A stretch of 64,000 nt of DNA, from the NCBI GenBank assembly GCA_028712505.1, contig JAQTQC010000005.1:7051-71050 (forward strand), written 5' to 3'. Numbering within the stretch: the stretch's first letter is position 1; every line of letters starts with the position of its first letter. Shown in pieces: positions 22,170-61,741 of the stretch. The notes under the pieces are model-generated. The model was given only the letters and a program-made list of their open reading frames with translations. It had not been told where the DNA came from and did no database searches. The DNA is from Candidatus Omnitrophota bacterium. Lineage in GTDB: Bacteria > Omnitrophota > Gorgyraeia > Gygaellales > Profunditerraquicolaceae. The position numbers and the translations under genes were made by a program.

Positions 22170-22317
22170 GAGAGAAGTTTGATTGCCTGAGTAAAGGCAA
22201 GTAAGTGTTTTAGTTTCTTAGGGGGTGTTCCGGACAGAGGGGCAGCCCCTATTTAATGTATTTTGTCTAGACCCATAAATTCGGCAGGATTGCGTCAAAA
22301 TAAAATATCTTCTGTTC

Positions 22318-22346
22318 TTGATTTAAAATTTCTAATGTGGTAAAAT
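22318..22346 (+). promoter_or_regulatory. candidate sigma70-type promoter (TTGATT-17-TGgTAAAAT) ending 4 nt before the ATG at 22350, implying a leaderless or near-leaderless mRNA
   Basis: -35 TTGATT at 22318-22323, 17-nt spacer, extended -10 TGGTAAAAT at 22338-22346. Confidence 0.3.
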
Positions 22347-22349
22347 TTT

Positions 22350-23126
22350 ATGATGAAATCCTGGGTTAGCTGGGTGTTATTGAGTTTATTCTTATTGTAT
22401 CCTTTAGAGGCTCCTGGCGCAGATGTTTCCTGGAATAATGTAGAAAAAAGCAAACATTTCCTTATTTATTTTCAGGATGCTCCTGCTGAATATATCAACC
22501 GCCTGGTGCGGGAGGCAGAACGCTCTTACAAGAATATTACCGAGTACCTGGGTTTTGTGAGGTTTGATTTCTGGATCTGGGATAACCGCTGTAAGATTTT
22601 CCTCTATCCCGACGCCGATACCTATCTGAAAACTACCGGAGTTATCGGCTGGTCAAGAGGGCATGTCCAGGTAGTAACAAAAGAGATCAGTACTTATATC
22701 TGGCAGGAAATGTTTTTTGATACGATTCTTCCTCATGAGATCGGGCATATCATCTTCAGGGAATTTGTCGGCTACAGCAAGGTGTTACCTCTCTGGCTTG
22801 ATGAGGGGGTGGCTTGCATGCAGGAGTATGAGAGCAATGAGCGTTTGGCCACCGCTAAATGCCTGGTGAACTTGAAATTATACACGCATTTGGATGATTT
22901 ATCCAAGATTCAGGATTCCGGGGTTATTATACCTTTTATTTTTTATAATGAATCTGCCAGCCTGGTGGATTTTCTCCTGAGGAGATATGGCAGGGGTAAA
23001 TTTGTTGATTTCTGTCGTTCTCTGCGTGATGAGCCTGATTGGAAACAGTCTCTCAGAGGTGTCTATAGATTAAAGAATCTGGATGAACTGGAAAGAAACT
23101 GGGTTATGGACTTAACTGAAAATTAA
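22350..23126 (+). CDS. secreted zinc metallopeptidase, peptidase-MA-like (HEIGH ... WLDEG)
   Basis: N-terminal signal-like segment MMKSWVSWVLLSLFLLYPLEAPGA. HExxH motif HEIGHIIF followed by WLDEGVA, as in Peptidase_MA_2 family proteins. Confidence 0.55.
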   Translation: MMKSWVSWVLLSLFLLYPLEAPGADVSWNNVEKSKHFLIYFQDAPAEYINRLVREAERSYKNITEYLGFVRFDFWIWDNRCKIFLYPDADTYLKTTGVIGWSRGHVQVVTKEISTYIWQEMFFDTILPHEIGHIIFREFVGYSKVLPLWLDEGVACMQEYESNERLATAKCLVNLKLYTHLDDLSKIQDSGVIIPFIFYNESASLVDFLLRRYGRGKFVDFCRSLRDEPDWKQSLRGVYRLKNLDELERNWVMDLTEN

Positions 23127-23144
23127 AGTTGGAGGATTGAATTA

Positions 23145-24059
23145 ATGAGGAATGAGGTAAAAGCCCGTGAATTTAATGTCTTAATTGTTGAGGACGATGA
23201 TAGAACATTTAAAGTTATCAGCGATGGGCTGACGGTTAACCCTGAATATAAGCTGCACCGGGTAACTACCGGGCAGGAAGCGATCAACCTGGCTAAAGAG
23301 GGTTATTTTGTCGCTATTATAACTGAGATGCAGATCGGTGATATGAACGGGATAGAATTAGTCCGCCGGCTTAAGAAAATAGACCAACGAATTAATATTA
23401 TCGGCCTGACTGTCTATGCCTTTGTTAATTTAGGCGTAGAGGCAATGAAGGAAGGGCTTTATGCGTATCTGATGAAGCCGTTAAATACCGAAGAACTGAA
23501 TTTAGTTTTAAGGCGGGCCATCGAAAATACATTTCTTTTGATCCAGGCAGGCCAGAGGAAGTATTATCAGGATATTGCGACAATGGATGGCTTGACCGGT
23601 GTTTATAACCATCGGCATTTCCATGAAATGCTGGATTGGAATATCTCGCATTTAAACCGTTCCCCCCAGGCATTTTCAATATTCATCATTGATATCGATG
23701 ATTTCAAAAAATACAATGATACAAAAGGTCATGTAGAAGGGGACAAGGTATTGCATAACTTCGCGCAGTTATTAGTCAGCTCCACCCGGGATAATGACAT
23801 GGTTTTCCGATACGGAGGAGAAGAGTTCGCTGTAATTTTATCTCAGACAGATCAGTTGAGTGCCCAAAAAGCGGGTGATAGGCTTTTGGCAATAGTAAGA
23901 AGCAGGATGCCTGTGACTATGAGCGTAGGTTTAGCTAGTTTTCCGATGAACGCTCAAATTAAAAGCGATCTTGTTGTGCGCGCTGATAAGGCTCTTTACC
24001 GGGCTAAGAAAACAGGTAAAAACAGGCTGTGTACTTATGATGAGAAGATAGACATATGA
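23145..24059 (+). CDS. response-regulator receiver domain fused to a GGDEF diguanylate cyclase (intact GGEEF and RxxD I-site; Glu in place of the phospho-acceptor Asp)
   Basis: REC-like N-terminus (VLIVEDDD ... LTVYAF ... YLMKP) but FVAIITEMQIGDMNG where LLDLMMPGMDG is expected. C-terminus carries DGLTGVYNHRHF ... RDNDMVFRYGGEEFAVIL ... ALYRAKKTGKNR. RBS GGAGG upstream. The TGA stop overlaps the atpE ATG (ATGA at 24056-24059). Confidence 0.8.
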   Translation: MRNEVKAREFNVLIVEDDDRTFKVISDGLTVNPEYKLHRVTTGQEAINLAKEGYFVAIITEMQIGDMNGIELVRRLKKIDQRINIIGLTVYAFVNLGVEAMKEGLYAYLMKPLNTEELNLVLRRAIENTFLLIQAGQRKYYQDIATMDGLTGVYNHRHFHEMLDWNISHLNRSPQAFSIFIIDIDDFKKYNDTKGHVEGDKVLHNFAQLLVSSTRDNDMVFRYGGEEFAVILSQTDQLSAQKAGDRLLAIVRSRMPVTMSVGLASFPMNAQIKSDLVVRADKALYRAKKTGKNRLCTYDEKIDI

Positions 24060-24268
24060 AAAATCTAACTATTATCCTGATTATGTTGATCAGCACCTTA
24101 GGGCCCTCAGCTGTTATTGCAGCAGTGGGTTTTTCCGGGGTTAAGGCAATCGGAAGAAACCCGTCGGCAGCTCCTAAAATATTAATTTCCATGGTTTTGG
24201 CTTTTATTTTTGCCGAAGCTATAGCTGTAATCGGGCTTTTGGTGGTATATAACTTGTTTGGGCAGTAA
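24056..24268 (+). CDS. atpE: F-type ATP synthase subunit c (proteolipid), 70 aa
   Basis: Two-helix hairpin with the loop GRNPSAAP and the conserved carboxylate in helix 2 (IFAEAIAVIGLL). Confidence 0.8.
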   Translation: MKNLTIILIMLISTLGPSAVIAAVGFSGVKAIGRNPSAAPKILISMVLAFIFAEAIAVIGLLVVYNLFGQ

Positions 24269-24313
24269 ATAAATTCTTAAATTTGTATTCAGTGTTCCCT
24301 CGCTTATACGCTC

Positions 24314-24334
24314 GAAGATTTCTTTGAAATCTTC
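24314..24334 (+). promoter_or_regulatory. perfect 9-bp-stem hairpin GAAGATTTC-TTT-GAAATCTTC in the atpE-atpF spacer
   Basis: Exact palindrome read from the sequence. Candidate mRNA processing or stability element. Confidence 0.4.
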
Positions 24335-24384
24335 TTCGCAAGCTCGGGATTTCGCTAAATAAGAGCATAAGGTGCTCAAATTCG

Positions 24385-24423
24385 CACATTGACTTATGTT
24401 CACTTTGTTCCATAAGTCAAGTG
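24385..24423 (+). promoter_or_regulatory. second hairpin in the atpE-atpF spacer (core TTGACTTATG / CATAAGTCAA, 12-nt loop, CAC/GTG extension with one bulge)
   Basis: Inverted repeat at 24389-24398 and 24411-24420. Lies 22 nt upstream of the atpF RBS AGAGGAG. Confidence 0.4.
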
Positions 24424-24444
24424 CTCATTTAAAGAGGAGTTCAT

Positions 24445-25203
24445 ATGCTGGTATGGCAGATAATCCTTATACAGATCGCTACTTTTACTTTGATTGTTTT
24501 ATTCCTCCGTTGGCTGCTTTACAGCCACATTAGCCGCGCTTTAGACCGCCTGCAAAGATTGAATCAGCAAAACCTGGAAAAAGAAAAAGTGCTCAAGGAA
24601 GAGTTTGAGCGGGCAAGGAAACAGGCAGAGGTTGAGATCCAGCAGGGTAAGCTTGAGGCTGAGAATATAAAAGAGCAAGCTAAGGAAGAAGGTGAGAAGA
24701 CCAGGAGGAACCTGCTTGAGACATCTAAAGAAGAAGCTAAGCGTATTGTTAGCGAGGGGATGAGGGATAGCCAGAGAAAGTACAATGATTTGCTTTTGGA
24801 TATGCAGGATAAGGCGGTGTATCTGGCAGCGGATATCGTAAAATATATTTTTACAGAGAGGATCCGTAAGGTGTTGCATGAGCAAGTAATCGATGAATTG
24901 ATCGATGATGTTTCCGGCTTGGATAAAGAAAAAATACGTGCTCAGGGAGATAAGGCGGAAATCGTCTGCGCTTATTCGCTTGGGGAAGCGCAAAAGCAGA
25001 GATTGCAGCAAGCCTTATCTAATAAGCTAGAACGTAATATTATTATTGAAGAGACGATTGACCCGGAGATTGTCGGGGGTCTGATTATACGCTTAAGCGG
25101 ATTTGTGGTTATTGACGGTAGTATTAGGAATAAGTTCAAGAGGATAGTTCCGATAATGAAGGATAGGGCCAGAGAAGGCATTGGGCAAACAGGGAAGGGC
25201 TGA
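24445..25203 (+). CDS. atpFH: F-type ATP synthase subunit b fused to subunit delta (b-delta fusion)
   Basis: N-terminal TM helix plus b-like LRWLLYSHISRALDRLQRL and a long charged coiled coil. The C-terminus (IIIEETIDPEIVGGLIIRLSGFVVIDGSIRNKFKRI) matches the delta/OSCP C-terminal consensus. Confidence 0.7.
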   Translation: MLVWQIILIQIATFTLIVLFLRWLLYSHISRALDRLQRLNQQNLEKEKVLKEEFERARKQAEVEIQQGKLEAENIKEQAKEEGEKTRRNLLETSKEEAKRIVSEGMRDSQRKYNDLLLDMQDKAVYLAADIVKYIFTERIRKVLHEQVIDELIDDVSGLDKEKIRAQGDKAEIVCAYSLGEAQKQRLQQALSNKLERNIIIEETIDPEIVGGLIIRLSGFVVIDGSIRNKFKRIVPIMKDRAREGIGQTGKG

Positions 25204-26669
25204 TGCAGGAGATTAATTTAAAACCATTAGAAATAAAGGATGTCGGCACAGTCAGGGAGATCAAGGGCGGTGTCATAAAAATAGACGGGCTTGCTTCTTG
25301 CGTGAACGGACAATTGATTGAGCTTGCCCCTGGTCTGATGGGGATGGTTATTGGTTTTACCAAGAAGGACGTCTTGGTCTTAGTGCTTGGCGATGAGAAT
25401 AAGGTGCATATCGGCGATACTGTTTACGGAGAGGAAGGTGTTTTTGAGGTTCCTGTAGGCAGTAACTTTCTTGGCCGGGTGGTCAATACCTTTGGCCAGC
25501 CTCTAGACGGTAAAGGTAAGATCGAGGGTGTGGATACTTATCCGATATTTCGCAATGCTCCCGGGGTGTTGGACAGAGCCCCTATTCTCGAACCTTTTCT
25601 TACTGGAACCAAGATTATCGACACGTGTATACCTTTAGGAAAAGGGCAAAGGGAGCTTATCCTTGGGGACAGGGTTACTGGCAAGACTACCCTGGTTATC
25701 GATGCAATCATCAACCAGAAGGGTAAAGACGTAATTTGCATATATTGCTGGATAGGCGGTAGTCAATCTTCGTTTTTAAAAATCATGGAGCAGTTAAGGC
25801 TAAGCGGAGCTATGGAATGGACTATTGTGGTTACGGCATCCGCTTCAGCTTCTCCCGCAGAGCAATATCTGGTTCCTTATGCAGCTGCTGCCCTGGGTGA
25901 GTATTTTATGGATCATGGCCGGGATGTCTTTTGTGCCTTTGATAATTTAAGCCGGCATGCCTGGATTTATCGCGAGATCTCCCTGCTTTTAGAGAGAAGC
26001 CCGGGTAGAGAGGCTTATCCCGGAGATATGTTTTACACCCATTCACAGCTGATGGAGAGGGCGGGTAAGTTGAATGAAGAAAAAGGCTCAGGTTCAATGA
26101 CATTCCTGCCGATTGTAGAAACCCAGGAAGGTGATATTACCGGACTCATCCAATCCAACCTTGTTTCTATAACTGACGGCCAGATTTATTTAAGCGCCTC
26201 TCTTTTTAATGAAGGTTTTAAGCCGGCTATTGATTTAGGGCTTTCGGTTTCGCGTATCGGAAGCAAGGTACAGTGTGATGCGATAAAGAAGGTAAGCCGT
26301 TCACTAAAAAGAGAATTTGCCCTGGCTAAAGAATTAGCCGCGCTTACTACCATTCGAACCAAATTGTCCGCTGATATCGAACTTAGGCTTAAGCGGGGAC
26401 AGGCTCTGAAAGATTTGCTTATGCAGGATAAGTCAAAGCCTCTTTGCGTAGAGGAGATGATTGTTCTTTTTTACGCATTTAATAAAGACCTGCCTGAGAT
26501 CTTGGAGGAGTCGCAAAGAGAAAACTTTAAGCAGAACATATTCGCTTATTTGCTCAGAGAACATCCGGAATTAGTCGAAGAACTTACTATCCAAAAGCTT
26601 CTTACCGGAGGAATTGAAAGAGGTTTGGATAAGGCGTTTGAGGAATTTTTTGCCGCGGCAAACAATTAA
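25203..26669 (+). CDS. atpA: F-type ATP synthase alpha subunit
   Basis: GDRVTGKTTLVIDAIINQKG Walker A in alpha context, plus the typical alpha C-terminal helical region. Start overlaps the atpFH stop (TGATG). Confidence 0.85.
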   Translation: MQEINLKPLEIKDVGTVREIKGGVIKIDGLASCVNGQLIELAPGLMGMVIGFTKKDVLVLVLGDENKVHIGDTVYGEEGVFEVPVGSNFLGRVVNTFGQPLDGKGKIEGVDTYPIFRNAPGVLDRAPILEPFLTGTKIIDTCIPLGKGQRELILGDRVTGKTTLVIDAIINQKGKDVICIYCWIGGSQSSFLKIMEQLRLSGAMEWTIVVTASASASPAEQYLVPYAAAALGEYFMDHGRDVFCAFDNLSRHAWIYREISLLLERSPGREAYPGDMFYTHSQLMERAGKLNEEKGSGSMTFLPIVETQEGDITGLIQSNLVSITDGQIYLSASLFNEGFKPAIDLGLSVSRIGSKVQCDAIKKVSRSLKREFALAKELAALTTIRTKLSADIELRLKRGQALKDLLMQDKSKPLCVEEMIVLFYAFNKDLPEILEESQRENFKQNIFAYLLREHPELVEELTIQKLLTGGIERGLDKAFEEFFAAANN

Positions 26670-26685
26670 GTTTTAAGGAGTAAAA

Positions 26686-27576
26686 ATGATTCCATTAGTC
26701 GTATTACGCAAGGATTTGGCGTTTAATAAGGTAATGGAAAGCATCATTGAGGTGTTAAAGGGCGTCGCTGCCACTGAGTATTTTCATCTTCAGGGTAAAA
26801 GAAGGAGTTTTGATGAGTTTGAGGGTTATTTAAGAGACCTGTTTGCCCAGGTAGATGTCGGTGATTTCAAACATCCGTTCTTGAACTCTGAGCCTTCTGC
26901 GAAAAATATTGTCTTAATAACTTCCGATTCCGGTTTTCTCGGGGAGCTTAATATGTCGGTAGTAAATTATGGTTTAAGCCAATATCAGAGTGGCGATTTA
27001 CTGACGGTTGTGGGCAAAGAAGGAACAAGATATATCAGCGAGGATGATTATAAGTACACAAGTTTTCCGGGTATTGACGATGATATTTCTTATAGCGGGG
27101 TAATCAGATTAAGAGATCATATCATAAAGGAATTCTTTAGTAAAAAGCTGAGCGGCACGGTTATAGTCTATCCGCATTTTGTTTCTTTTTCTGTGCAGAA
27201 GATAGAACAGTTTCAGTTGTTCCCTTGCAGGTTTTTATTCCCCCAGGAATCCGGTGTCCCGGGTGACAGTAAGGCAAAGTTCTGGGAGTCCGGAACCGAT
27301 GAAAAGATAATCCTGGACTCATCATTAAAAACAACGGTGGAATATTTAGTCAGGATTTGGATCGGTCAGTTAATTAATCTTATATATTGGGAAAGTAAGC
27401 TTTCTGAATGGGCAGCGCGGGTGATGCATCTGGAAAGAAGTACCAATGAACTTAGGAACCAGCAGAAGAAGATGCGTTTACAGTATTTCCGCACTATGCA
27501 CGAGCGAAGTGATAAAAATACCCGGGAAATCTTTGTCAGCCGTATGGCTTTGATCAAGACCGGGGCTGTATCTTAA
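26686..27576 (+). CDS. atpG: F-type ATP synthase gamma subunit (divergent)
   Basis: Position between alpha and beta, size 296 aa, gamma-like N- and C-terminal helices. Assignment rests mainly on synteny. Confidence 0.6.
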
Positions 27577-27590
27577 GAAAGAGGAGCTTT

Positions 27591-29000
27591 ATGCAGGAAG
27601 GCAAGATAGTCTCAGTCCAGGGGCCAATCGTAGATGTGGAGTTTCCCGCGGATGTATTATTCCCGGCTATATACGATGTTATTGAGACCGAGACTTTTGA
27701 CGGTCACCGGATAGTGCTTGAGGTGGTAGAATATTTGAGTAAATCTGATTCGGATAAGACAAATACCATGAGGTGTATTTGTTTAAATCCGAATTTTGGT
27801 TTGCGTAGGAACGCCCGGGCAATTGCCAAAGGCTCAACTATCAGTGTACCCGTAGGAGAAGCAACCTGTTCCCGGATATTGAACGTTTTGGGTGAACCGG
27901 TAGATAAGAAAGGGCCAGTTAATGTCGGCCCGGATAAGATCAGGCCCACACATAGAAAACAGCAGATAGCTACCGTTGATACCGGGGATGGCAAAGAGAA
28001 GAAGTTTGAGGTTATGCAAACAGGCATAAAGATGTTCGATCTCCTGTTTCCTCTAATTAAAGGTTCCCGGAACGGTATCCTAGGAGGCGCAGCTTGCGGC
28101 AAGAGTGTAATCATCTTAGAGCTTATGCATAACATTATCAAGATGCAGAAAGGCTATTGTGTTTTTACGGGAGCAGGAGAGCGGACCAGGGAAGGTAATG
28201 AGTTATATTATGAACTGGAGAAACAGGATATCTTGAATAGGTCATCTTTGGTATTTGGGCAGATGAACGAATCTCCCGGAGCCAGATTTGAAATAGTAAA
28301 CACAGGTTTGACTATCGCGGAGAATTTTGCCGAAGAAGGGGATGATGTTCTGTTGTTTGTGGATAACGTATACAGGTTTGCCCAGGCAGGTACAGAGTTG
28401 TCTACCCTTTTAGGCAGGATTCCTTCCGAGACAGGTTATCAACCTACGTTGCCTTCAGAGATGGCTGAATTTCAGGAGAGGATTCGTTCAGTCGGACAGG
28501 CTTCAATTACGGCAATGGAAGCAGTTTATGTGCCCTCCGATGATTTAACTGATCCGGCAGTAGTCTGTATATTCAGTTATTTGGATTCTATAGTTATCTT
28601 GAGCCGGCGTTATGTTCAGTTAGGCTTATTCCCTGCTATCGATGCCTTGACTTCGTCTTGCGCCTTTCTTGATCCGATGATTATCGGAAAAAGGCATTTC
28701 AAGACTGCTCAGGATGTTTTAAGAATCCTTAACCGGTATGAGGAGCTCAGGCGTATTGTTGCTATTGTAGGGGTAGAAGAACTTTCTCAAGGGGATAGGA
28801 CTATATTCGAAAGAGCAGCTAAGCTGCAGAATTTTCTTACCCAGCCGTTTTTTTGCGCCGAGGCTTATACAGGAAGAAAAGGAGAATATGTCCCTTTAGA
28901 GGCGACTTTAGAGGGTTGTGAAAGGATAGTTTCCGGCCAGGTGGATAAAGTTCAGGCGGAAAAATTTTATATGATTGGCGCACTGCTAAATGACATTTAA
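27591..29000 (+). CDS. atpD: F-type ATP synthase beta subunit (Walker A GGAACGKS; DELSEED replaced by EELSQGD)
   Basis: [20 protein letters not shown]-terminus. Catalytic GERTREG motif, [11 protein letters not shown], and P-loop [11 protein letters not shown]. Confidence 0.85.
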
Positions 29001-29020
29001 ATTTTAGGGGAGACTAAAAA

Positions 29021-30748
29021 ATGTTAATTAAAATTGGGCAGATGTTGATTAACAAGAAATTGATTACCTCTGAGCAGTTAGAAGAGGCGCTTACCGAGCA
29101 GACCAGGACGGGTGAGCTCTTGGGGGTGATTTTGATCAAGAAAGGCTTCTTGAACCAGGAGGATTTTTTAAAAGTACTTTCGGAGCAATTTAATGTGCCT
29201 TTCATAAAGTTAAAAGAAACTACCATTGATCCTTTGGCGATCAAGAAAGTCCCTGCCAAGTTCGCCTGGTATTACAAGGTTATGCCGGTAAAGTTTGTAG
29301 ATAATAAATTACTGATTGCTTCTTCCGATCCTTTACGTTCCCTGGATGACTTGAGAATATTTTTAGGTTATGATTTAAAGCCTGCCCTGGCTGAAGAAAC
29401 TGAAATTATGGAAGCGATTAAAGAGCATTATGGTGTAGGAGCCGAGACCGTAGAGGGGATTATTGCTAAGGCGCCCAAGGATGTCAGAGTTCCAGACGCC
29501 TCAAAAGAAACAGGCAGGATCGAGGATATTGAAAAGTTAGCCGAAGATGCCTCAGTGGTCAAACTGGTAAATCAGATTATCTTGGAGGCTTATCAAAAAA
29601 GAGCTACTGATATCCATATTGAGCCATTCAGAGGCAAGATGAGTATAAGGTATCGTATCGACGGTGTACTTTATAACGCGAATGTACCGGCGGATATTGA
29701 GCGGTTTTTCCTGGCCATTATTTCGCGTATAAAGATAATGTCCAGGCTGAATATCGTAGAACGCCGGCTTCCCCAGGATGGCCGCGCCGTGATAAAGATA
29801 GGTAAGGAAGAACTGGATCTGAGGATCTCGATTATACCCACGCGTTATGGCGAGGGCATGGTAATAAGGATCCTCCCTATGAGCATGCTTTTTAGTTTGG
29901 AAAGACTGGGACTAGCGCCTGAAGATTTAGAGCTCTTGGCAAAATTGATCAAGAAGCCCCATGGCATAATCCTGGTGACCGGCCCGACGGGAAGCGGTAA
30001 GAGTACCACTTTGTATGGATGTTTGAATGATATAAAAAGCAGCAGGAATAAGATAATTACCATTGAAGATCCTATCGAGTATGAGTTGGAAGGTATAACT
30101 CAGATTCAGGTGGTTCCTGAAATAGGCTTTACTTTTGCTCAAGGTTTAAGAAGTATCTTAAGGCATGACCCGGATATAATGATGGTTGGAGAGATCCGGG
30201 ATTTTGAGACCGCTGAGCTGGCAATCCGTAGTGCCTTGACCGGCCATCTAGTTTTCTCTACCATCCACACCAATGATGCCGCAGGCGCAGTTGCCCGTCT
30301 CTTAAATATCGGTATTGAGCCGTATCTGGCGGCTTCTTCAGTTGAGGCATTTATTGCTCAAAGGCTGGTGCGCTTAATCTGCCCTGACTGCAAGAAAATC
30401 GATACTGACGTACCGGATAATTTCAGGTCATTGATCGGTCAGGATATAGCCAGGAGTGGTGGAGGATTGCAACACTTGAAACCGGAAGAGATCAAGATTT
30501 ATAAAGGCCAGGGTTGCAAGGAGTGTAATTTTACCGGCTATAAGGGCAGGACTGCAATCCATGAAATATTAGTAGTGGATAAGGGGATACGGGAGCTGAT
30601 GCTCAGAAAAGCCTCAACCGATGAATTGCGGGATAAGGCGGTCAGTGCCGGCATGAAAACATTGCGTCTATGCGGATGGAAAAAAGTTATTGACGGTTTG
30701 ACTACCCCTGAAGAGATATTGAGGGTAACCCAGGCAGAGGAGTATTAA
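29021..30748 (+). CDS. gspE: T2SS/T4P assembly ATPase GspE/PilB family (N-terminal GspE_N/MshEN-like domain, Walker A GPTGSGKST, tetra-Cys zinc motif)
   Basis: Motifs GPTGSGKSTTLY, DPIEYEL, MVGEIRD, CPDCKK...CKECNFTGYKGR. N-terminal KIGQMLINKKLITSEQLEEALTEQ. Confidence 0.85.
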   Translation: MLIKIGQMLINKKLITSEQLEEALTEQTRTGELLGVILIKKGFLNQEDFLKVLSEQFNVPFIKLKETTIDPLAIKKVPAKFAWYYKVMPVKFVDNKLLIASSDPLRSLDDLRIFLGYDLKPALAEETEIMEAIKEHYGVGAETVEGIIAKAPKDVRVPDASKETGRIEDIEKLAEDASVVKLVNQIILEAYQKRATDIHIEPFRGKMSIRYRIDGVLYNANVPADIERFFLAIISRIKIMSRLNIVERRLPQDGRAVIKIGKEELDLRISIIPTRYGEGMVIRILPMSMLFSLERLGLAPEDLELLAKLIKKPHGIILVTGPTGSGKSTTLYGCLNDIKSSRNKIITIEDPIEYELEGITQIQVVPEIGFTFAQGLRSILRHDPDIMMVGEIRDFETAELAIRSALTGHLVFSTIHTNDAAGAVARLLNIGIEPYLAASSVEAFIAQRLVRLICPDCKKIDTDVPDNFRSLIGQDIARSGGGLQHLKPEEIKIYKGQGCKECNFTGYKGRTAIHEILVVDKGIRELMLRKASTDELRDKAVSAGMKTLRLCGWKKVIDGLTTPEEILRVTQAEEY

Positions 30749-30752
30749 GCAG

Positions 30753-30992
30753 ATGTTCAAGGTTTCGGTGCTGGACATAAAGACCGCTTCATCTATATTC
30801 CAGGAGTTGGTTTCTCAGGTTGTGCTGCCTGGTGAGGAGGGGGAGTTGTCGATTATGGATTTTCATCAGCCGATTATCTCCTGTCTTAAGGATGGGTTAA
30901 TCCGGATAGATAATACCCCGCCTATATTTATTAAAAGCGGGATTGCCAGTATGCAAGATAATGAGCTAGTGGTATTGGTGGAGAAAAAATAA
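30753..30992 (+). CDS. atpC: F-type ATP synthase epsilon subunit, beta-sandwich N-terminal domain only (79 aa, no C-terminal helical domain)
   Basis: VVLPGEEGELSIMDFHQPIISCLKDGLIRI and FIKSGIASMQDNELVVLVE align with the epsilon NTD (E. coli [28 protein letters not shown]). RBS GAGGAG upstream. Sits 4 nt after the gspE stop and 1 nt before gspF. Confidence 0.7.
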   Translation: MFKVSVLDIKTASSIFQELVSQVVLPGEEGELSIMDFHQPIISCLKDGLIRIDNTPPIFIKSGIASMQDNELVVLVEKK

Positions 30993-30993
30993 T

Positions 30994-32226
30994 ATGCCGA
31001 TATTTGTTTATCAGGCGAAAAAAGGCCCGCAGGAAATTATCGATGGTACGGTGGAAGCCGCAACCAAGGAAGCGGCTGTCAGTAAAATAGAGCAGATGGG
31101 CTATATGCCTATCAGGCTTAGCCTTAAGGAAGGGTCGGCTGTTGGCAATACCGGTAATCTTCAGGGAAATAGGGCCTTTAGTTTCTTTGACCGGATAAGC
31201 TCCCGCGATCTGAATGTTTTTACCGACCAGCTGGCTACTCTGGTTAAGTCTAAAGTGCCGCTTTTTGAAGCAATCAATATACTTTCTTCTCAGACGGAGA
31301 ATCCCAAATTAAAACAAATAATAATCGCCATATCCGGGCAGCTAAAAGACGGCAAGACTCTTTCTGAGGCTTTGAGCAAGTATCCTAAGGTTTTCCCCCT
31401 TCTTTATGTGAATATGGTTCATTCCGGGGAATCCGGAGGGGTATTAGATGAGACTCTGACCCGGTTGGCTAAATTCCGCGAAGAGCAGGAAGAGGTGAGG
31501 GCTAATATAAGCTCAGCCTTGGCATATCCGATATTTATATCAATAGTTGGATTGATTACCGTCATTATCCTGCTTACTTTCGGTATTCCGCGTTTAGCCT
31601 CCATGTTCAGCGAAAATAAACAAGCCCTGCCCTTACCGACTAAGTTCTTGATTTCAATGAGCAGCGGGATCAGGAATTACTGGTATCTCGGGGTTATATT
31701 CATAGGCTTGGCTGTTTTTATACTGCGGCAAAAACAGGCAATTGAAAAGAATAAGGCTGCGATTGATAAATTTATATTAAAGTTGCCCCTGATCGGGAAT
31801 TTTAGCAAGAAGGCGATGCTGGCGGAATTTACCCGGACATTTGCCTTACTTCTGGCTAATGGGGTGCCGGTGCTTGAGGCCTTGCAGATAACCGTGCCGA
31901 CAATTAATAACGAAATGTTCAGGATAGAATTGGAGAAGGTGCATAGTGATATTGTCGTGGGTACCCCCCTTTCCCAAAGTATGAAGAAATCCAGCTGGTT
32001 TCCTCCTTTTCTGACCAATATGATTGCGGTCGGAGAAAGAGGGGGGAATTTGCAGGAGGTATTATTGGAAGTGGCGGTTTTTTACGAACGCGAAGTAAGA
32101 AAAATAAACAAGATAATGACTTCTTTGCTTGAGCCGGCGATAATTTTGATCATGGGCTTAATCGTAGGGTTTATCGTTATAGCAATGCTCCTGCCTATTT
32201 TTGAAATAAATATGGCGGTACAATAA
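30994..32226 (+). CDS. gspF: T2SS/T4P inner-membrane platform protein GspF/PilC family
   Basis: MPIFVYQAKKGPQEIIDGTVEAATKEAAVSKIEQMGYMPI N-terminus. Two GspF repeats with three TM segments. Confidence 0.85.
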   Translation: MPIFVYQAKKGPQEIIDGTVEAATKEAAVSKIEQMGYMPIRLSLKEGSAVGNTGNLQGNRAFSFFDRISSRDLNVFTDQLATLVKSKVPLFEAINILSSQTENPKLKQIIIAISGQLKDGKTLSEALSKYPKVFPLLYVNMVHSGESGGVLDETLTRLAKFREEQEEVRANISSALAYPIFISIVGLITVIILLTFGIPRLASMFSENKQALPLPTKFLISMSSGIRNYWYLGVIFIGLAVFILRQKQAIEKNKAAIDKFILKLPLIGNFSKKAMLAEFTRTFALLLANGVPVLEALQITVPTINNEMFRIELEKVHSDIVVGTPLSQSMKKSSWFPPFLTNMIAVGERGGNLQEVLLEVAVFYEREVRKINKIMTSLLEPAIILIMGLIVGFIVIAMLLPIFEINMAVQ

Positions 32227-32241
32227 TTAAGGGGGATTCAA

Positions 32242-32658
32242 ATGAGGGCAAAAAGCGGTTTTACACTTATAGAATTAATGTTGGTAGTCATAATTCTTGG
32301 TGTCTTAGCAGCGATGGTGATGCCCAGACTGTCCGGACGTTCAGAGCAGGCCAAGGTTGCGGTGGCCAAGACAGATATCAGCGCTAATATAGCGACTGCG
32401 CTTGATCTTTATGAACTGGATAACGGCCGTTATCCGACTACGGAACAGGGTTTGGCTGCCTTATCGACAAAACCGGGAGATCTTTCTGAGGGGGCGAACT
32501 GGAATGGACCGTACATCAAGAAAGAGTCGCAAGACCCCTGGAATAAAGAATATCAATATAAATATCCCGCTACACATGAAGGCCAGGATTATGATTTGTA
32601 TTCTTTGGGTCCGGACGGCATAGAGAGCGAAGATGATATCGGTAACTGGCAAAAATGA
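32242..32658 (+). CDS. gspG: major pseudopilin GspG (T2SS type)
   Basis: Prepilin leader plus GFTLIELM. YELDNGRYPTTEQGLAAL, DPWNKEYQY and DLYSLGPDG closely match the GspG consensus. Confidence 0.85.
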   Translation: MRAKSGFTLIELMLVVIILGVLAAMVMPRLSGRSEQAKVAVAKTDISANIATALDLYELDNGRYPTTEQGLAALSTKPGDLSEGANWNGPYIKKESQDPWNKEYQYKYPATHEGQDYDLYSLGPDGIESEDDIGNWQK

Positions 32659-33100
32659 AGCCTTGGATCTTTTAAACTGTAAGGCGGATGCTGAGCGGCC
32701 AATTCTTCGGCCGCGAACGCATAAAGGTTTTACGTTAATTGAGATAATGATTAGCGTGTCTATCCTTTCCTTGGGGCTTATCCTGATCATGCAGGGGCTT
32801 GCTAAATGTGTAAATATTTTGCGTATTTCCCAGAGCAACCTGGCGGCAACCTTATTGGCCGAGGATAAGATGGCCGAGATGGAAATAGCAGCCAAGCAGG
32901 ATGGTGCAAAGGCATTTCTTGGCGATACAAGCGGGGAAGAGAAATCCGGTAATCTGGAGCTCAATTGGCAGATACGCCTGACTCCGGATGAGGAATACGA
33001 GAATCTAAACCGGATTTTGGCTACTGTCCGTTGGAAAGATGGCCGTAATAACGGCTCAAGTGTTCTTAGCACCTATTTGACGATTTTTAATGATAAATAA
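32633..33100 (+). CDS. minor pseudopilin (GspH/GspI-like); true start uncertain
   Basis: KGFTLIEIMISVSILSLGLILIM prepilin-type N-terminus. The annotated ATG gives an unusually long 31-aa leader. Confidence 0.6.
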   Translation: MISVTGKNEALDLLNCKADAERPILRPRTHKGFTLIEIMISVSILSLGLILIMQGLAKCVNILRISQSNLAATLLAEDKMAEMEIAAKQDGAKAFLGDTSGEEKSGNLELNWQIRLTPDEEYENLNRILATVRWKDGRNNGSSVLSTYLTIFNDK

Positions 33101-33707
33101 AAGAAATAAGAGAATAAAACCCGCAGGGTTTACTCTGGTTGAGTTGATTATCAGCGGAGCGATAATCTTATTGGTTTCGGTAACTGTCTATTCCGTTTTT
33201 GCCAGCGGTATAAATGTTTGGAGAAAGGCAAATCAGTTCCAGGGTAAAGGTCATGCCCTAAGGTTGGTTGTTGAGAAGATGAGCAGGGAGATAAGGAATA
33301 CGTTTAGGTTTTCTACTATTCCTTTTGAAGGCAGCGAGAGTATTGTCTATTTTCCTCAGATCGTTGACAGCCAGCTCAGCAGGGTTATTTATTTTGTTGA
33401 TGAAAAGGAGAATTTTTGCCGCAGGACCCAGAGTTATCCTGAAGTTTTTGAGAAGGGGGAGTCTGGAAAATGTGATATACTGCTTCCCGGGTTGAAAAAG
33501 TTGAGATTTGAATACTGTTATCTTGATAATGCCAGCGGGGAATATGAATGGAAGGATAAATGGGTTAAGGAGGAGCAGGATACTATCCCCCAGGCAATCA
33601 AAGCAGAGTTTACTTTTGAGGGGCAGAACGGAGAAGAGCTAAAGTTTGCTAAGACAGTATTTATCCCCATTGGTACCGGAGAGCAAAAAATAGAACTTAT
33701 CCAGTAA
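33090..33707 (+). CDS. minor pseudopilin (GspJ-like)
   Basis: MINKRNKRIKPAGFTLVELIISGAIILLV prepilin N-terminus, 205 aa. Confidence 0.6.
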   Translation: MINKRNKRIKPAGFTLVELIISGAIILLVSVTVYSVFASGINVWRKANQFQGKGHALRLVVEKMSREIRNTFRFSTIPFEGSESIVYFPQIVDSQLSRVIYFVDEKENFCRRTQSYPEVFEKGESGKCDILLPGLKKLRFEYCYLDNASGEYEWKDKWVKEEQDTIPQAIKAEFTFEGQNGEELKFAKTVFIPIGTGEQKIELIQ

Positions 33708-33714
33708 GGTATTT

Positions 33715-34734
33715 ATGTCCAGGAATGGTATTTATTCTCGCGCAAGTGTATTGATTATTACTCTCTGGGTTTTAGGTTTCTTGACCATCCTGGTGGTTAA
33801 CCTGGGGTTTATGGTGAGGAGCCAGCTGCAATTTGCCGATCACTTTCAAGATAGGTTGAAAATGTATTACCTGGCCCGCGCGGGCATAGAAAGAGCGGTT
33901 GCTGAATTGTATGTAGATGATACTGAAAGCACCGACGCCCTGAATGAATCATGGGCGAATAAGGAAGAATTTTTTAAAGACTTGGCTTTTGGGGGCGGTT
34001 TTATCAGCGTTAGCTATAAGATGAATGACAAAGAAGACCAGGATGAAATAACCTTGTACGGGGTAATGGATGAGGCAAGCAGGATAGATATAAATAACGC
34101 ACCCTCTGAGGTATTGGTGACCTTGTTGGAAAATATCGGTGGAGTAGAAACAGAAGAGGCGATAGATATTGCCGCTGCCATTGTTGATTGGAGGGATAAG
34201 GATGTTGCGCTTTCTACTGGCGGGGCGGAAAGCGATTATTATAAAGGGTTGTCGCCGGGCTATGATTGCAAGAATGGAAATTTTCAGGTGGCCGAAGAGT
34301 TGTTGCTGGTTAAAGGTATGACTGCAGAGATTTTTTCCAAAATCAAGAACCTGATCACTGTCTACGGTACAGTCCAGGTGAATATCAATACTGCAGGTTT
34401 TAACTGTTTTTATGCCTTAGGTTTGAACAGCGACCTTTGCGATAAAATAATTAAATTCCGCCAGGGCAGCGATGAATTATCCGGTACTGAGGATGATTAT
34501 GTTTTTAACGCACCCGTGGAATTGATGAATGTCGGATCTTTGTTTACCAAGGAGGCTACACAGATAAACACCCTGATTTCCAGGAATATGCTTAAGGTAA
34601 AATCCGATATCTTCAGGATTAGCTCCTTAGGTATACTCAAGAATGCCAGGGGAGAGCGTTCCCGCGGGATTGTTTGCGTTTTAAAGCGTCAAAAGGATAA
34701 AAACCCTAAATTATTATATTGGCATGAAAATTAA
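33715..34734 (+). CDS. gspK: GspK-like large minor pseudopilin
   Basis: SRASVLIITLWVLGFLTILVVNL N-terminal segment, about 340 aa, plus MYYLARAGIERAVAEL, typical of GspK. Confidence 0.6.
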   Translation: MSRNGIYSRASVLIITLWVLGFLTILVVNLGFMVRSQLQFADHFQDRLKMYYLARAGIERAVAELYVDDTESTDALNESWANKEEFFKDLAFGGGFISVSYKMNDKEDQDEITLYGVMDEASRIDINNAPSEVLVTLLENIGGVETEEAIDIAAAIVDWRDKDVALSTGGAESDYYKGLSPGYDCKNGNFQVAEELLLVKGMTAEIFSKIKNLITVYGTVQVNINTAGFNCFYALGLNSDLCDKIIKFRQGSDELSGTEDDYVFNAPVELMNVGSLFTKEATQINTLISRNMLKVKSDIFRISSLGILKNARGERSRGIVCVLKRQKDKNPKLLYWHEN

Positions 34735-36226
34735 CTTAGCGGATTTATTTAAGAAACCGGAACAGAGCACAACTGTCTTCCAGATAGATAATAACTGGTT
34801 GAGGTTGATTCAGATAAGGGAGCTTAAGCGGGAGAAAAAGGTCTCGGCGATTAAGGCCATAGAGATCACCAATCTATCCGACGAGCAGATTGCGCTTAAG
34901 ATTTCCGGTTTGGCTGCGGAGCTGAAGATAAACTCGCGGTCTCTTGTGCTTTCCATACCGCGCCATCAGACGACTACCAGGAATCTTGATTTACCTTCGG
35001 CAAATCCGCTCGAGATAAAAGATATGATCGAACTTCAGATCGGCAAGCAGACGCCTTATGCCAGCGATGAGGTGATTAAGGATTACCAGATTTTGGGTAG
35101 TAATGCGGAAGGTTACAGCAAAGTGCTTTTGGTTATTGTCCACCGGGATATTGTCGGCAGGTATTTTAAGGTAATCGAATCAGCAGGGCTAAAAGTGCAG
35201 AAGGTAAGTTTTAGTTCCGAAGGTTTATTGAATTGGAGAAGCCTGGTTTACCGGCAGAAGATAGCGGCTGAAAAGGTACAGATCTTGATCGAGGTTGATT
35301 ATGACGCAAGCGATTTTGAGGTTGTCCTTAATGATCGGTTAGTTTTTGGCAGGAGTATTTCGTTAGGCTTCTCGCAGTTTCCCGGTCAGCTTGATCTTTG
35401 GCAGAAGAAATTTATTGAAGAGGTAAATCACTCGATTTACGCTTACCAGAATGAAATAATCGGTAAGGAGATCGGTAAAATTATAATCAGCCGCCCAAGA
35501 TTAGTGGGGGACAGTTTGGATAAAGAACTCCTGGAAAAGGAGTTCGGTTCGTCAGTGGAGATTATCGATCAGTTTAAAGATATTCCTTTTACCGATGAAG
35601 GCTTGAATTCTTATAATAACTTGGTCAGGACGGATCTATCCTTTGCCGGGCTTCTCGGTTTAGGGTTGCCTGTCACTGAACATAAAATTGACCTTATTCC
35701 CCAGGAGCACCAGATAGGTAAGGCAGTAAAAGAAAAGGGAAAAGATCTTTATCTTATGGGCATATTGCTGGTGTTTATACTGGTTGCAGTCTCCGGAGTA
35801 TTCCTGGGAAGGATGTATAACAAGGAACGTTATCTCGGTCAGCTAAAGCAACGTCTTACTGAGATCCAGGATAAGACTAAGGAATTAAATAATATGGTCC
35901 GGGGCATAGAGACGATAAAAGACCGGGTTTATACAAGGGGGATGTCGCTAAATCTTCTTTATGAGGTGCATAAGGCGATCACACCTGAAATGCATTTGGT
36001 TTCGATGAGTTTTGACGGTAAAGAAACCCTGACCTTGCGTGGACAGTCTAATGAAATGTCGGAGGTTTTTAGCTTTGTAAATAAACTTGAAGAATCCAGC
36101 TATTTTCAGAACGTGAAGATAAAATACGCCACTAAACGCAAAGAAGGGGATAAGGAAATCACGGATTTTGAAATTTCCTGTCCTTTGGCGGACAAATACA
36201 AGGTTGCGGAGAAGTATAAATTATAA
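34724..36226 (+). CDS. GspL-like / PilM-PilN fusion (cytoplasmic actin-like domain, single TM, periplasmic domain)
   Basis: 500 aa with one TM helix (LYLMGILLVFILVAVSGVFLG) near residue 350 and a PilN/GspL-like C-terminal domain. Sits within the gsp gene order. Confidence 0.55.
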   Translation: MKINLADLFKKPEQSTTVFQIDNNWLRLIQIRELKREKKVSAIKAIEITNLSDEQIALKISGLAAELKINSRSLVLSIPRHQTTTRNLDLPSANPLEIKDMIELQIGKQTPYASDEVIKDYQILGSNAEGYSKVLLVIVHRDIVGRYFKVIESAGLKVQKVSFSSEGLLNWRSLVYRQKIAAEKVQILIEVDYDASDFEVVLNDRLVFGRSISLGFSQFPGQLDLWQKKFIEEVNHSIYAYQNEIIGKEIGKIIISRPRLVGDSLDKELLEKEFGSSVEIIDQFKDIPFTDEGLNSYNNLVRTDLSFAGLLGLGLPVTEHKIDLIPQEHQIGKAVKEKGKDLYLMGILLVFILVAVSGVFLGRMYNKERYLGQLKQRLTEIQDKTKELNNMVRGIETIKDRVYTRGMSLNLLYEVHKAITPEMHLVSMSFDGKETLTLRGQSNEMSEVFSFVNKLEESSYFQNVKIKYATKRKEGDKEITDFEISCPLADKYKVAEKYKL

Positions 36227-36228
36227 AT

Positions 36229-36762
36229 ATGGACTTTTTATCCAGGTTATCTAAAAAAGAAAGACGACTGTTTTATATCACGGTTGCGGTAGTGGCCATT
36301 GTATTCTTGGACAGGGTGGTATTTAAGCCGGTGATTAATAAGCTGGAAAGCTTCAACGGGAAGATTTCCTTAGAGGAGAAAAAGCTGGAGAAATCGATGC
36401 TCATCCTGGCGCAGGAGCAGGCTATAAACAACGAATACAAGAAATTTGCCGAGAATATAAAACAGTCACAGTCGGAAGAAGAGGTAATTGCCGGCCTCTT
36501 AAGCAGTATAGAGAAAATGGCCAATAGTGTTTCTGTCTTTATCTTGGATATGAAGCCCGGGCCGGTGGACAAGAGCGAGTTCTATAAGAAATACAGCGTT
36601 AAAGTGGAAGCTGAAGCAAAGATCAATAACTTATCGGATTTTATTTATCAACTGGAAAATTCTCCAAAGCTGCTCAGGGTATCTGATTTTCGCCTGACCC
36701 CCCAGAAAAAAGAGACTGTCCTTAAAGTCAGCATGACAGTTACAGAGGTCTTGATCAACTAA
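36229..36762 (+). CDS. GspM/PilO-like bitopic assembly protein
   Basis: N-terminal TM (FYITVAVVAIVFLDRVVF), a coiled coil, 177 aa. Last gene of the gsp block. Confidence 0.5.
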   Translation: MDFLSRLSKKERRLFYITVAVVAIVFLDRVVFKPVINKLESFNGKISLEEKKLEKSMLILAQEQAINNEYKKFAENIKQSQSEEEVIAGLLSSIEKMANSVSVFILDMKPGPVDKSEFYKKYSVKVEAEAKINNLSDFIYQLENSPKLLRVSDFRLTPQKKETVLKVSMTVTEVLIN

Positions 36763-36790
36763 TCAACCTTATAGAGTACATATTCCCCCG

Positions 36791-37897
36791 ATGAAAGTAT
36801 TAACTCAATTTGAGAAAAGCGAGTGTTTCTTTTCTAATCCTGAGTTTATTATATCTTGTTTTGACCCTTCTTTAATGGCTGCTTGTTTTGAAGAGATGGA
36901 ACAGGCGCTCTCCCGCGGTCATTATCTGGCTGGCTTCCTTTCATATGAGGCGGGGTATTCTTTTGAAGAAAAGTTTTTTCCTTCCAAGACATATGATTTC
37001 CCGCTTCTTTATTTCGGAGTTTATAAAAAACCGCAGAGACATATAACCGGGCTAGCAGGTCATCGTCTTCAACAATTTCCGGAGAATCTGCGTTTAGATA
37101 TTAAATACGACGAGTATTCTTTAAATATAAATACCATCCGTGATTATATTGCTAAAGGCGATGTCTATCAGATTACGTATTGTATAAAACTGTTGTTTGA
37201 TTTCTGCGGCCCGGCATTTTCCCTCTATAAACAACTTTTAAAAGAACAACTAGTACCCTATCCCGCTTATATCCAGACTGAAGATTTCAACATCCTTTCT
37301 TTATCTCCCGAGCTTTTCCTTAAAAAGGAGTCTACTCGTATAATGACCAGGCCAATGAAGGGGACCTGGGCTAGAGGTCAGGGTATGTTTTCCGATCTGG
37401 TGTCTCCTTTACGTTTAAAATATGATTTAAAAAACCGGGCGGAAAACGTGATGATCGCTGATCTTTTAAGGAATGATTTGGGCAGGCTTGCGCTTGATAT
37501 CAAAGCTCCCCGGTTGTTTGAGGTGGCCAGGTATAAGACTCTTTGCCAGATGACTTCTACTGTTACAGCTAAGATAGATAGGGATATCTCTATCTACAGG
37601 CTTTTTGCGTCGCTTTTCCCCTCGGGTTCGGTCAGCGGAGCGCCGAAGATACGCGCTATGCAGATAATCAGGGAATTAGAAAAAGAAGAGCGCAAGATCT
37701 ATACCGGGGCTATTGGCTATATTACTCCTGGAAAAGACATGTTTTTTAATATTCCTATCCGTACGTTATTAATCCGGGGAAATTGCGGTCAGATGGGTAT
37801 AGGTGGAGGCATAGTCTGGGATTCGACATCGGATGGAGAGTGGAATGAGGGGCTGCTCAAAGCAAAATTTCTTACTGATCTTGTAAAAAATGATTAG
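36791..37897 (+). CDS. pabB: chorismate-binding enzyme, aminodeoxychorismate/anthranilate synthase component I family
   Basis: SPELFLK...TRPMKGT, LLRNDLGRLA, SVSGAPKIRAMQIIRELE, YTGAIGYI, GGGIVWDS. Confidence 0.65.
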   Translation: MKVLTQFEKSECFFSNPEFIISCFDPSLMAACFEEMEQALSRGHYLAGFLSYEAGYSFEEKFFPSKTYDFPLLYFGVYKKPQRHITGLAGHRLQQFPENLRLDIKYDEYSLNINTIRDYIAKGDVYQITYCIKLLFDFCGPAFSLYKQLLKEQLVPYPAYIQTEDFNILSLSPELFLKKESTRIMTRPMKGTWARGQGMFSDLVSPLRLKYDLKNRAENVMIADLLRNDLGRLALDIKAPRLFEVARYKTLCQMTSTVTAKIDRDISIYRLFASLFPSGSVSGAPKIRAMQIIRELEKEERKIYTGAIGYITPGKDMFFNIPIRTLLIRGNCGQMGIGGGIVWDSTSDGEWNEGLLKAKFLTDLVKND

Positions 37898-37955
37898 CTT
37901 TGAGGGCTAAGTAGAAGTATAATTTGTAACAAGAGGATAGTTTATATTTAAAATC

Positions 37956-60930: not shown

Positions 60931-60996
60931 TTTTACTTATTTTAACTTTAAGCTATACTGATAAAATAAGCTGATCTTTTGAAGGAGTAGCCTAAG

Positions 60997-61371
60997 ATGA
61001 AGAATGATAACGCTAAAATACTGGTCATTGATGATGAGCCGGATCTTGTTGAAATGGTCACCTTGAGGCTGGAGGTAAACGGTTATCAGGTTATCTCTGC
61101 TTATGACGGCCAAGAGGGTCTGGCTAAGGCCCGGAATGAGAATCCGGATTTAATTATTCTTGACCTTATGCTTCCTAAAATAGACGGCTATAAAGTTTGC
61201 CGTCTGCTGAAATTTGACGAAAAATATAAAAAGATACCGATAATACTTTTTACCGCCCGCGCCCAGGAATCTGATATAAAAGTAGGTGAAGATGTAGGGG
61301 CGGATTCCTATTTAACTAAACCGTTTGAGCCGGATGTGCTTTTGGTTAAGGTAGCTCAACTATTGAAATAA
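60997..61371 (+). CDS. single-domain CheY-like response-regulator receiver (paralog of 39430-39795)
   Basis: KILVIDDEP, DLIILDLMLPKIDGY, LTKPFEP. Confidence 0.8.
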   Translation: MKNDNAKILVIDDEPDLVEMVTLRLEVNGYQVISAYDGQEGLAKARNENPDLIILDLMLPKIDGYKVCRLLKFDEKYKKIPIILFTARAQESDIKVGEDVGADSYLTKPFEPDVLLVKVAQLLK

Positions 61372-61374
61372 TAA

Positions 61375-61713: not shown

Positions 61714-61741
61714 AAGTTGCTGGTTTCAAATCGGAGTTAAA

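Follow-up and report, generated by a model that had tools for sequence, protein, structure and literature searches.

A beta-sandwich-only epsilon subunit in a predicted pilus-linked F-ATPase of Candidatus Omnitrophota

Can an F-type ATPase be held in check by its epsilon subunit when the inhibitory part of epsilon is not encoded by its gene? The C-terminal helices of epsilon insert toward the C-terminal domain of beta and its DELSEED motif and block ATP hydrolysis, as is known from the E. coli structure 3OAA and from mutagenesis of the PS3 enzyme. The question is raised by an atp locus on a 64,000-nt stretch of DNA from a metagenome-assembled genome (MAG) of Candidatus Omnitrophota; this whole stretch is referred to below as the window, and coordinates are window positions unless another locus is named. 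A first-pass annotation had treated the interval 27591-30992 as atpD-atpC, coding for beta and epsilon, and had proposed an enzyme with no epsilon-mediated autoinhibition that may run as an ATPase. Both genes are present; however, a gspE/pilB-type gene between them had been overlooked, and the interval holds three plus-strand genes in the order atpD, gspE/pilB-type, atpC. We think it probable, with some reserve, that atpC encodes a selected, beta-sandwich-only epsilon of an Omnitrophota pilus-linked F-ATPase, which would have no epsilon autoinhibition, would probably be hydrolysis-driven and would be regulated with the pilus genes and by cyclic di-GMP (c-di-GMP).

Relatives of the locus were collected by a scan based on beta, with one genome taken per species, which gave 18 MAG loci at 56-98% beta identity. 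Most of these are labelled Candidatus Omnitrophota, with Planctomycetales or Nitrospirota as the label on some.

The short epsilon subunit

The first-pass annotation had read atpC (30753-30992, plus strand) as encoding the beta-sandwich domain of epsilon and nothing more, in about 79 residues, and this reading holds. The 79-aa product has PF02823 as its sole Pfam match (residues 12-77, E=3.7e-14) and aligns to residues 5-82 only of E. coli epsilon (E=1e-6). The AlphaFold2 model, for which 32 homologues were used, consists of eight strands without any helix and has a pLDDT (predicted local distance difference test) score of 76. In Foldseek comparisons it fits the N-terminal half of solved epsilon structures, the TM-score being about 0.8 when normalised to the query and about 0.5 when normalised to the targets of some 130 residues. 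Likewise, all 90 homologues recovered by a word-indexed search are 68-94 aa long and match PF02823 only, the C-terminal hairpin being found in none. When 1.84 billion cluster representatives were searched exhaustively with phmmer, 239 matches were returned; among the 149 new representatives in the best 150 of these, 109 are of 100 aa or less and 25 are of at least 120 aa. The named clusters from this search are nearly all Omnitrophota, one being additionally labelled Elusimicrobia.

The unusual length of atpC, and nothing else about it, might point to an artefact such as a frameshift, an assembly error or a decaying pseudogene. However, the length and stop position are equal in 12 independent assemblies, the stop falling at the same codon in all 12 orthologous loci, and the homologues of 68-94 aa noted above share the short form. 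The ATG of gspF lies 2 nt past the atpC stop, and both this junction and the gspF N-terminus are conserved in the 12 loci. Three-frame translation of these loci, for which positions 30721-31080 were read in the window, showed that the other two frames past the atpC stop contain stops. The pairwise dN/dS (the ratio of non-synonymous to synonymous substitution rates) has a median of 0.076 for atpC at a dS of about 1.5. Because the stop and the downstream ATG are conserved, the other frames are closed and dN/dS is close to 0.08, a frameshift or sequencing error near 30990 is excluded, and we regard the probability of an artefact of any kind as negligible. Two particular candidates were considered and rejected: a hidden epsilon C-terminal domain in a downstream frame, for which the frames are closed and there is no room before gspF, and an atpC pseudogene, which the dN/dS value rules out. 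We take the short epsilon to be ancestral to the family and to be maintained by purifying selection.

A different explanation would be that the 79-aa protein has ceased to be an F-ATPase subunit and was recruited as an accessory to GspE and GspF, which would account for the position of its gene between gspE and gspF. This position is found in the window, in 10 close loci among L001-L013 and in L024-L027, and its tight coupling to gspF is kept in the window and 11 close loci, at a spacing of 2 nt, and in L024-L027. However, in L015, L018, L028 and L029 the epsilon gene lies directly upstream of atpE, the c subunit gene, and epsilon is always accompanied by gamma and c. Furthermore, among the epsilon homologues E31 is near-invariant (at least 90%) and H38 is invariant, and these are positions that we take, from cross-linking work on the E. 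coli enzyme, to be contacts with the c loop and gamma. Recruitment away from the ATPase is therefore very unlikely.

The classical epsilon brake cannot operate in such an enzyme because the C-terminal helices that make it up are absent, and absent family-wide, with neither room nor an alternative frame in which they might be encoded. The loss of epsilon autoinhibition, as first proposed, is thus a well supported prediction from the sequences. Epsilon would have been cut down to a structural job, that of a beta-sandwich joining gamma to the c-ring, with the regulatory C-terminal hairpin discarded and the acidic DELSEED patch of beta allowed to drift at its fifth and sixth positions.

Beta and the remaining subunits

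Beta (469 aa) is encoded by atpD (27591-29000, plus strand; PF00006, E=6.8e-63). Alignment with E. coli beta (3oaa_D) confirmed the claim that DELSEED is replaced by EELSQGD, at residues 396-402 (nt 28776-28796); in this HMMER alignment the two motifs lie in a matched pair of segments, one of which is GMDELSEEDKLV. The first-pass description of the loop as degenerate was right in that the motif is altered; however, it overstated the change, as ELS..D and three of the five acidic residues remain. Motif counts were made on 120 beta relatives at 60% identity or more, in which the DELSEED equivalent is EELSKED in 49, EELSRED in 21 and EELSGGD in 13, with EELSQGD seen in the window alone. Across the clade, K, R, Q or G occupies the fifth position, whose charge is thus lost or reversed, and ELS..D persists together with three or four acidic residues.

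The unusual cysteine noted in the P-loop is also present: residues 165-172 (nt 28083-28106) read GGAACGKS, the E. coli counterpart being GGAGVGKT. The commonest form among the relatives is GGAALGKS (86/120), followed by GGAACGKS (16/120) and GGAGLGKS (12/120), and GKS stands in place of GKT in 119 of the 120. The cysteine is thus a swap for a hydrophobic residue in the window's own subclade, and the Walker A consensus GxxxxGK[ST] is still satisfied. The catalytic motifs GERTREG, LLFVDN (Walker B) and YVPSDD are intact, and the best matches of beta in the PDB are canonical F1 beta subunits (E. coli 3oaa_D, 2.9e-134), with the beta of the Mycoplasma G1-ATPase at 9e-90.

The changes extend to the peripheral stalk. 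A single 252-aa protein (24445-25203, plus strand) is a fusion of b, in the form of a transmembrane helix and a long helix, with the delta/OSCP C-terminal domain alone (b-deltaCTD). It matches ATP-synt_B (PF00430) over residues 7-133 and OSCP (PF00213) over profile positions 103-168 of 172; it aligns to residues ~105-175 of E. coli delta (108-175 in the PDB alignments), and the delta N-terminal domain is absent. In its AlphaFold2 model (pLDDT 86.7) a 135-residue helix is accompanied by a second helix and by an alpha/beta domain. Foldseek placed the last 62-70 residues on delta/OSCP C-terminal domains with a root-mean-square deviation of 1.2-1.7 A, and the overall shape resembled subunit E of V-ATPases. 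Homologues of this protein numbered 77, the 72 full-length close ones being 242-253 aa long.

Alpha (488 aa; 25203-26669, plus strand; PF00006 and PF00306) is shortened at its N-terminus, by about 14 residues relative to its counterparts in Caldalkalibacillus, Bacillus PS3 and E. coli. In E. coli, the N-terminal segment of alpha binds the N-terminal domain of delta. The PDB alignments of window alpha begin at query residues 8-13 against target residues 22-30, and most of the delta-binding segment must therefore be missing. Alpha retains its P-loop, GDRVTGKT, and the arginine finger motif SVSRIG, and its best PDB match is a canonical F1 (1e-132). Gamma (296 aa) is encoded by atpG (26686-27576, plus strand; PF00231, E=8.1e-27) and the 70-aa c subunit by atpE (24056-24268, plus strand; PF00137). 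The c subunit has its helix-2 carboxylate at E54 (nt 24215-24217) and a GRNP loop.

Subunit a was sought with phmmer and with a hidden Markov model (HMM), using two N-ATPase subunit a sequences and E. coli subunit a, against six-frame open reading frames (ORFs) of the window and 27 loci. As a control, the E. coli query found the subunit a of the N-ATPase loci L019 and L020 at 1e-13. No subunit a was found in any of the six frames of the 64-kb window, nor in L001-L018 and L024-L027. Likewise, PF00119 was absent from the Pfam scans and called genes of the window, where plus-strand ORFs of at least 90 aa were scanned and a giant ORF was sampled at its two ends only, and of about 20 related loci, within some 10 kb of the ATPase genes. 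Of the features of a canonical F1Fo enzyme, then, the c carboxylate and the catalytic residues of alpha and beta are kept, and a full-length delta and a local subunit a are not. From the sequences, the whole complex appears to be trimmed well beyond epsilon, in the N-terminal domain of delta, the N-terminal tail of alpha and the subunit a gene of the operon.

Linkage to pilus genes and c-di-GMP signalling

The gene that separates atpD from atpC encodes a 575-aa secretion/pilus ATPase of the GspE/PilB type (29021-30748; T2SSE, E=5.5e-128; MshEN, PF05157, E=9.3e-18). Epsilon is followed by the platform protein GspF/PilC (30994-32226; T2SSF, E=1.4e-68) and then, at 32242-36762, by genes identified from Pfam matches and synteny as encoding GspG, GspI-like, GspJ-like and GspK-like proteins, a PilM-PilN fusion and a PilO/GspM-like protein, all on the plus strand. 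The ATPase genes thus run in the order c-b-alpha-gamma-beta-[gspE]-epsilon. The gaps within the block are of 28 nt or less, except for 177 non-coding nucleotides between atpE and the b-delta gene (24269-24444). A consensus scan of 21800-38200 gave no convincing plus-strand intergenic terminator inside the block, and promoter predictions in the same region were no more numerous than expected from shuffled sequence.

In every locus that is long enough to tell (L001-L018 and L024-L029), the F-ATPase genes are linked with gspE, gspF, gspG and the genes after them. Epsilon directly after beta, which is the canonical operon order, occurs in none of the loci of the family. Synteny of the atp and gsp genes outlasts the movement of the epsilon gene described above and extends to about 57% beta and 42% epsilon identity. 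The adjacency of beta and gspE is kept in all of L001-L018 and L024-L029 and seems to be the most persistent link of the cluster. In L014 (3-3557), an Omnitrophota contig, a Cache/PAS histidine kinase rather than gamma precedes beta, and gspE still follows it. There are also insertions specific to single lineages: in L024 a Peptidase_MA gene (2933-3664) separates c from b, and in L026 a gene for a 77-aa protein of the 23S_rRNA_IVP family (3988-4221) separates b-delta from alpha.

Loci of this kind have been described before. Seymour et al. (2023, Nat Microbiol, PMC10066038) reported 'symbiotic', non-respiratory F-type ATPases beside type IVa pilus genes in all Omnitrophota classes, with the two gene sets within 10 kb of each other in 57 of 66 contigs, and proposed a role in attachment to, or motility on, host cells. 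On the evidence of its genes we assign the window locus to this group: it is from Omnitrophota, and its ATPase genes lie less than 10 kb from those for PilB/GspE, PilC/GspF, pilin and PilMNO. The window has the same hallmark, with the two sets of genes interleaved and a giant ORF next door. In the published tree, alpha branches away from 'respiratory' F-ATPases together with Mycoplasma types 2 and 3 (PMC10066038); the label 'type 2/3' appears to sit poorly with our PDB searches, in which the closest structures for alpha and beta are canonical F1 enzymes and the Mycoplasma G1-ATPase is far more distant. West-Roberts et al. (bioRxiv 10.1101/2023.11.21.568195) described loci resembling the type II secretion system (T2SS) beside giant genes and did not mention the ATPase.

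Linkage of ATPase and pilus genes was therefore already published in 2023. In the Seymour paper we found nothing on a short epsilon, the b-deltaCTD fusion, a missing subunit a or the GKS P-loop, nor on an altered DELSEED, a GGDEF neighbour or beta-MshEN_N fusions, and our literature searches found no published description of epsilon or DELSEED in an Omnitrophota enzyme. The itemised trimming and the fusion of beta to MshEN_N-like modules, described below, appear to be new details.

If epsilon does not regulate the enzyme, what might? A response-regulator/GGDEF diguanylate cyclase gene (23145-24059, plus strand; GGDEF, E=1.5e-40, and Response_reg) shares 4 nt at its stop with the start of atpE, and such a gene also precedes the ATPase genes in L001-L011, L018, L024 and L026. 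This placement hints at c-di-GMP control of the cluster. The N-terminus of window GspE carries one 53-residue MshEN_N-like module (residues 4-56), followed by PF05157 and T2SSE; in the relaxed MshEN motif of Wang et al. (2016, PMC5013675), two 24-residue motifs are set 5 residues apart (24+5+24), and a motif scan of the GspE module scored 10/11 and 10/11.

In two distant relatives, from MAGs labelled Nitrospirota/Nitrospiria, beta itself (L015, 4083-6314; L016, 3378-5585) is extended at its C-terminus by about 265 aa, which form four tandem 53-residue modules. Each module is built from the two 24-residue motifs and 5-residue spacer; of the 11 positions that the relaxed motif specifies it satisfies 9-11, and it shares 40-49% identity with the N-terminal ~56 residues of GspE from the same cluster (BLASTP, E ~1e-12). 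The identification of the modules in beta as MshEN_N-like rests on the published motif and on BLASTP to GspE N-termini. If correct, the sharing of modules between beta and GspE would be a link of the Rosetta-stone type between the F-ATPase and the pilus ATPase. Taken with the GGDEF overlap and the module in GspE, the four modules fused to beta in these relatives suggest that control may have moved from epsilon to co-expression and c-di-GMP.

Another GspE/PilB paralogue is encoded further downstream in the window (61742-63397). The genes ahead of it are, in order, those for a large histidine kinase with multiple PAS domains (57160-60930), a response regulator (60997-61371) and a PilZ-domain protein (61375-61713). 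The stretch 57160-63397 looks like another c-di-GMP-linked pilus module.

Upstream of the cluster is the giant repeat ORF (75-22169, plus strand; 7364 aa), which is built of repeated modules of about 150-200 aa. LVIVD repeats (E=2.6e-74) lie towards its N-terminus and a transmembrane helix at its C-terminus. A Peptidase_MA-like gene lies between it and the response-regulator/GGDEF gene. Most relatives have a giant ORF ahead of the cluster: the C-terminus of the window's ORF is conserved there in L001, L003 and L005-L011, and L024 and L028 have giant ORFs in this position as well.

Pump, ATPase or motor

In the reading that we favour, alpha3beta3-gamma-epsilon-c(n), mounted on a b-deltaCTD stalk with the shape of V-type subunit E, would form a hydrolysis-competent rotary ATPase that has no brake, its activity being set by joint expression with the pilus/secretion machine and probably also through c-di-GMP. 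We infer the direction of catalysis, the mode of regulation and any physical coupling to the pilus machine from these arrangements. The first-pass suggestion that the enzyme may run as an ATPase is plausible; however, the loss of the epsilon helices on which it was based gives no direction. The 'non-respiratory' context, interleaved with pilus and T2SS genes, is better ground for an ATPase role than epsilon alone. A recent survey of 176 complete Omnitrophota genomes (10.64898/2026.06.07.730766) found alpha and beta in 125/176, gamma in only 30/176 at strict thresholds, V/A-type subunits in most Gorgyraeia and a complete respiratory chain in none. This pattern fits a second, specialised rotary ATPase and does not prove one.

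Several observations weigh against hydrolysis and c-di-GMP control. A short epsilon is no proof of an ATPase because ordinary synthases also have it (PMC4154653; and the Candidate Phyla Radiation, CPR). The motif EELSQ[SN]D occurs in N-ATPases that keep an epsilon of 129-132 aa, so that a changed DELSEED and a missing epsilon C-terminal domain are at most loosely linked. In sequence, alpha and beta resemble canonical F1 far more than they do the Mycoplasma motor ATPases. The motifs FAE[AST]IA and GRNP are invariant in 17 of 17 c sequences (16 related loci and the window), c is better conserved than any other small subunit (66-100% identity), and the transmembrane helix of b has many near-invariant residues; an invariant E54 and a conserved b helix are what would be expected if a distal subunit a exists and ions move through the complex. 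As for signalling, a Pfam search of the beta extensions of L015 and L016 gave no MshEN match and only weak DUF4388 and DUF2949 matches, and several positions of the MshEN motif deviate in these modules.

These points bear most directly on the alternative that the enzyme is an ordinary ion-translocating F1Fo synthase/ATPase with a distally encoded subunit a, its short epsilon a trait of the lineage and its synteny with pilus genes free of any mechanical coupling. In its favour are the intact catalytic motifs and high similarity to canonical F1, the invariant c glutamate and GRNP loop, the conserved b helix, and the retention in epsilon of the residues that would contact c and gamma. Epsilon subunits that lack the C-terminal half are also known from canonical operons, as in Chlorobi and Bacteroidetes, and atp operons are split in many phyla (PMC4154653). 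However, no subunit a was found in the 64 kb, or within ~10 kb at about 20 related loci, and the delta N-terminal domain and alpha N-terminal tail have been lost. The interleaving with gspE and gspF persists to about 57% beta and 42% epsilon identity, and in L015 and L016 beta is fused to modules of the type found at the GspE N-terminus. V/A-type ATPases are present in many Omnitrophota (10.64898/2026.06.07.730766). Among three genomes of the Seymour KEGG orthology (KO) table (PMC10066038), genome 221 has KOs for alpha and beta only and is without K02108, a weak point that concerns a single genome. We consider an ordinary F1Fo enzyme to be a serious alternative, albeit a somewhat unlikely one.

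Three groups of rotary ATPases allow the position of the window enzyme to be judged further. The N-ATPases (atpDCQRBEFAG; Dibrova et al., 2010, PMC2881411) are usually the second rotary ATPase of a genome and have been argued to be non-synthesising (PMC2881411). They share with the window the absence of a separate delta gene (atpH), a b of about 250 aa to which the C-terminal region of delta is joined (seen in the N-ATPase loci L019 and L020), and a DELSEED variant of the form EELSQxD, the L019/L020-type loci having EELSQ[SN]D. However, the window is without atpQ, atpR and atpB and without the atpDCQRBEFAG order, whereas L019 and L020 have the true N-type order. The window c has, on our reading of its sequence, a single carboxylate followed by Ala and no Na+ ligand set, unlike that of N-ATPases; N-ATPase epsilon (129-132 aa) keeps the C-terminal extension that window epsilon is without; and window beta is 44-45% identical to N-type beta, with GKS in the P-loop against GKT.

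The Mycoplasma type 2 and type 3 'F1-like X0' ATPases (Beven et al., 2012, PMC3369863; the G1-ATPase, PMC11864180; the MIB-MIP-linked type 3, PMC12994834) resemble the window enzyme in being an extra F1-type ATPase of a host-dependent bacterium that is tied genetically to a surface or motility machine, and they have been proposed to be ATP-driven motors rather than synthases. Their clusters have unrelated X0 membrane proteins and no c, b or delta, whereas the window has c and the b-deltaCTD fusion. The Mycoplasma epsilon-like protein has two predicted C-terminal helices and DELSEED is retained (PMC3369863), and the window has neither; furthermore, window beta is much less similar to Mycoplasma G1 beta than to E. 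coli beta. CPR operons (L021-L023) have the same beta-sandwich-only epsilon, of 85-86 aa. They differ in that their beta P-loop is GKT, and in that L022 and L023 have the standard delta-alpha-gamma-beta-epsilon order, with a separate delta and no pilus genes; L021 holds beta and epsilon only.

The Mycoplasma precedent invites a more far-reaching version, in which there would be no subunit a at all and the complex would not be an ion pump. It would instead be an ATP-driven motor, made of alpha3beta3-gamma-epsilon and a c-ring with the E-like b-deltaCTD protein as stator, docked on GspE/GspF/PilM through GspE-N-terminal-type modules and gated by c-di-GMP, and it would help to assemble or power a pilus/secretion apparatus by which the giant surface protein encoded next to it is deployed in attachment to prey. 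We regard this as a speculative and rather doubtful proposal. Were it true, it would be the second independent co-option of F1 for a cell-surface machine after that in Mycoplasma, and the first to keep the c-ring.

A whole family of F-ATPases is thus without the textbook bacterial brake of the epsilon helices, under strong purifying selection, has lost the delta N-terminal domain and a subunit a gene in the operon as well, and has its genes wired into a pilus/secretion operon. The itemised parts list given here for the poorly understood 'symbiotic' ATPase of Omnitrophota makes the question of pump or motor testable. If the enzyme has a housekeeping role only, it would be one more lineage with a naturally truncated epsilon.

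One further observation concerns the window as a whole. All of the scanned or annotated ORFs are on the plus strand, and GC skew is above zero in every 2-kb bin except 8001-10000 (-0.005), which together are consistent with the window lying on the leading strand of one replichore.

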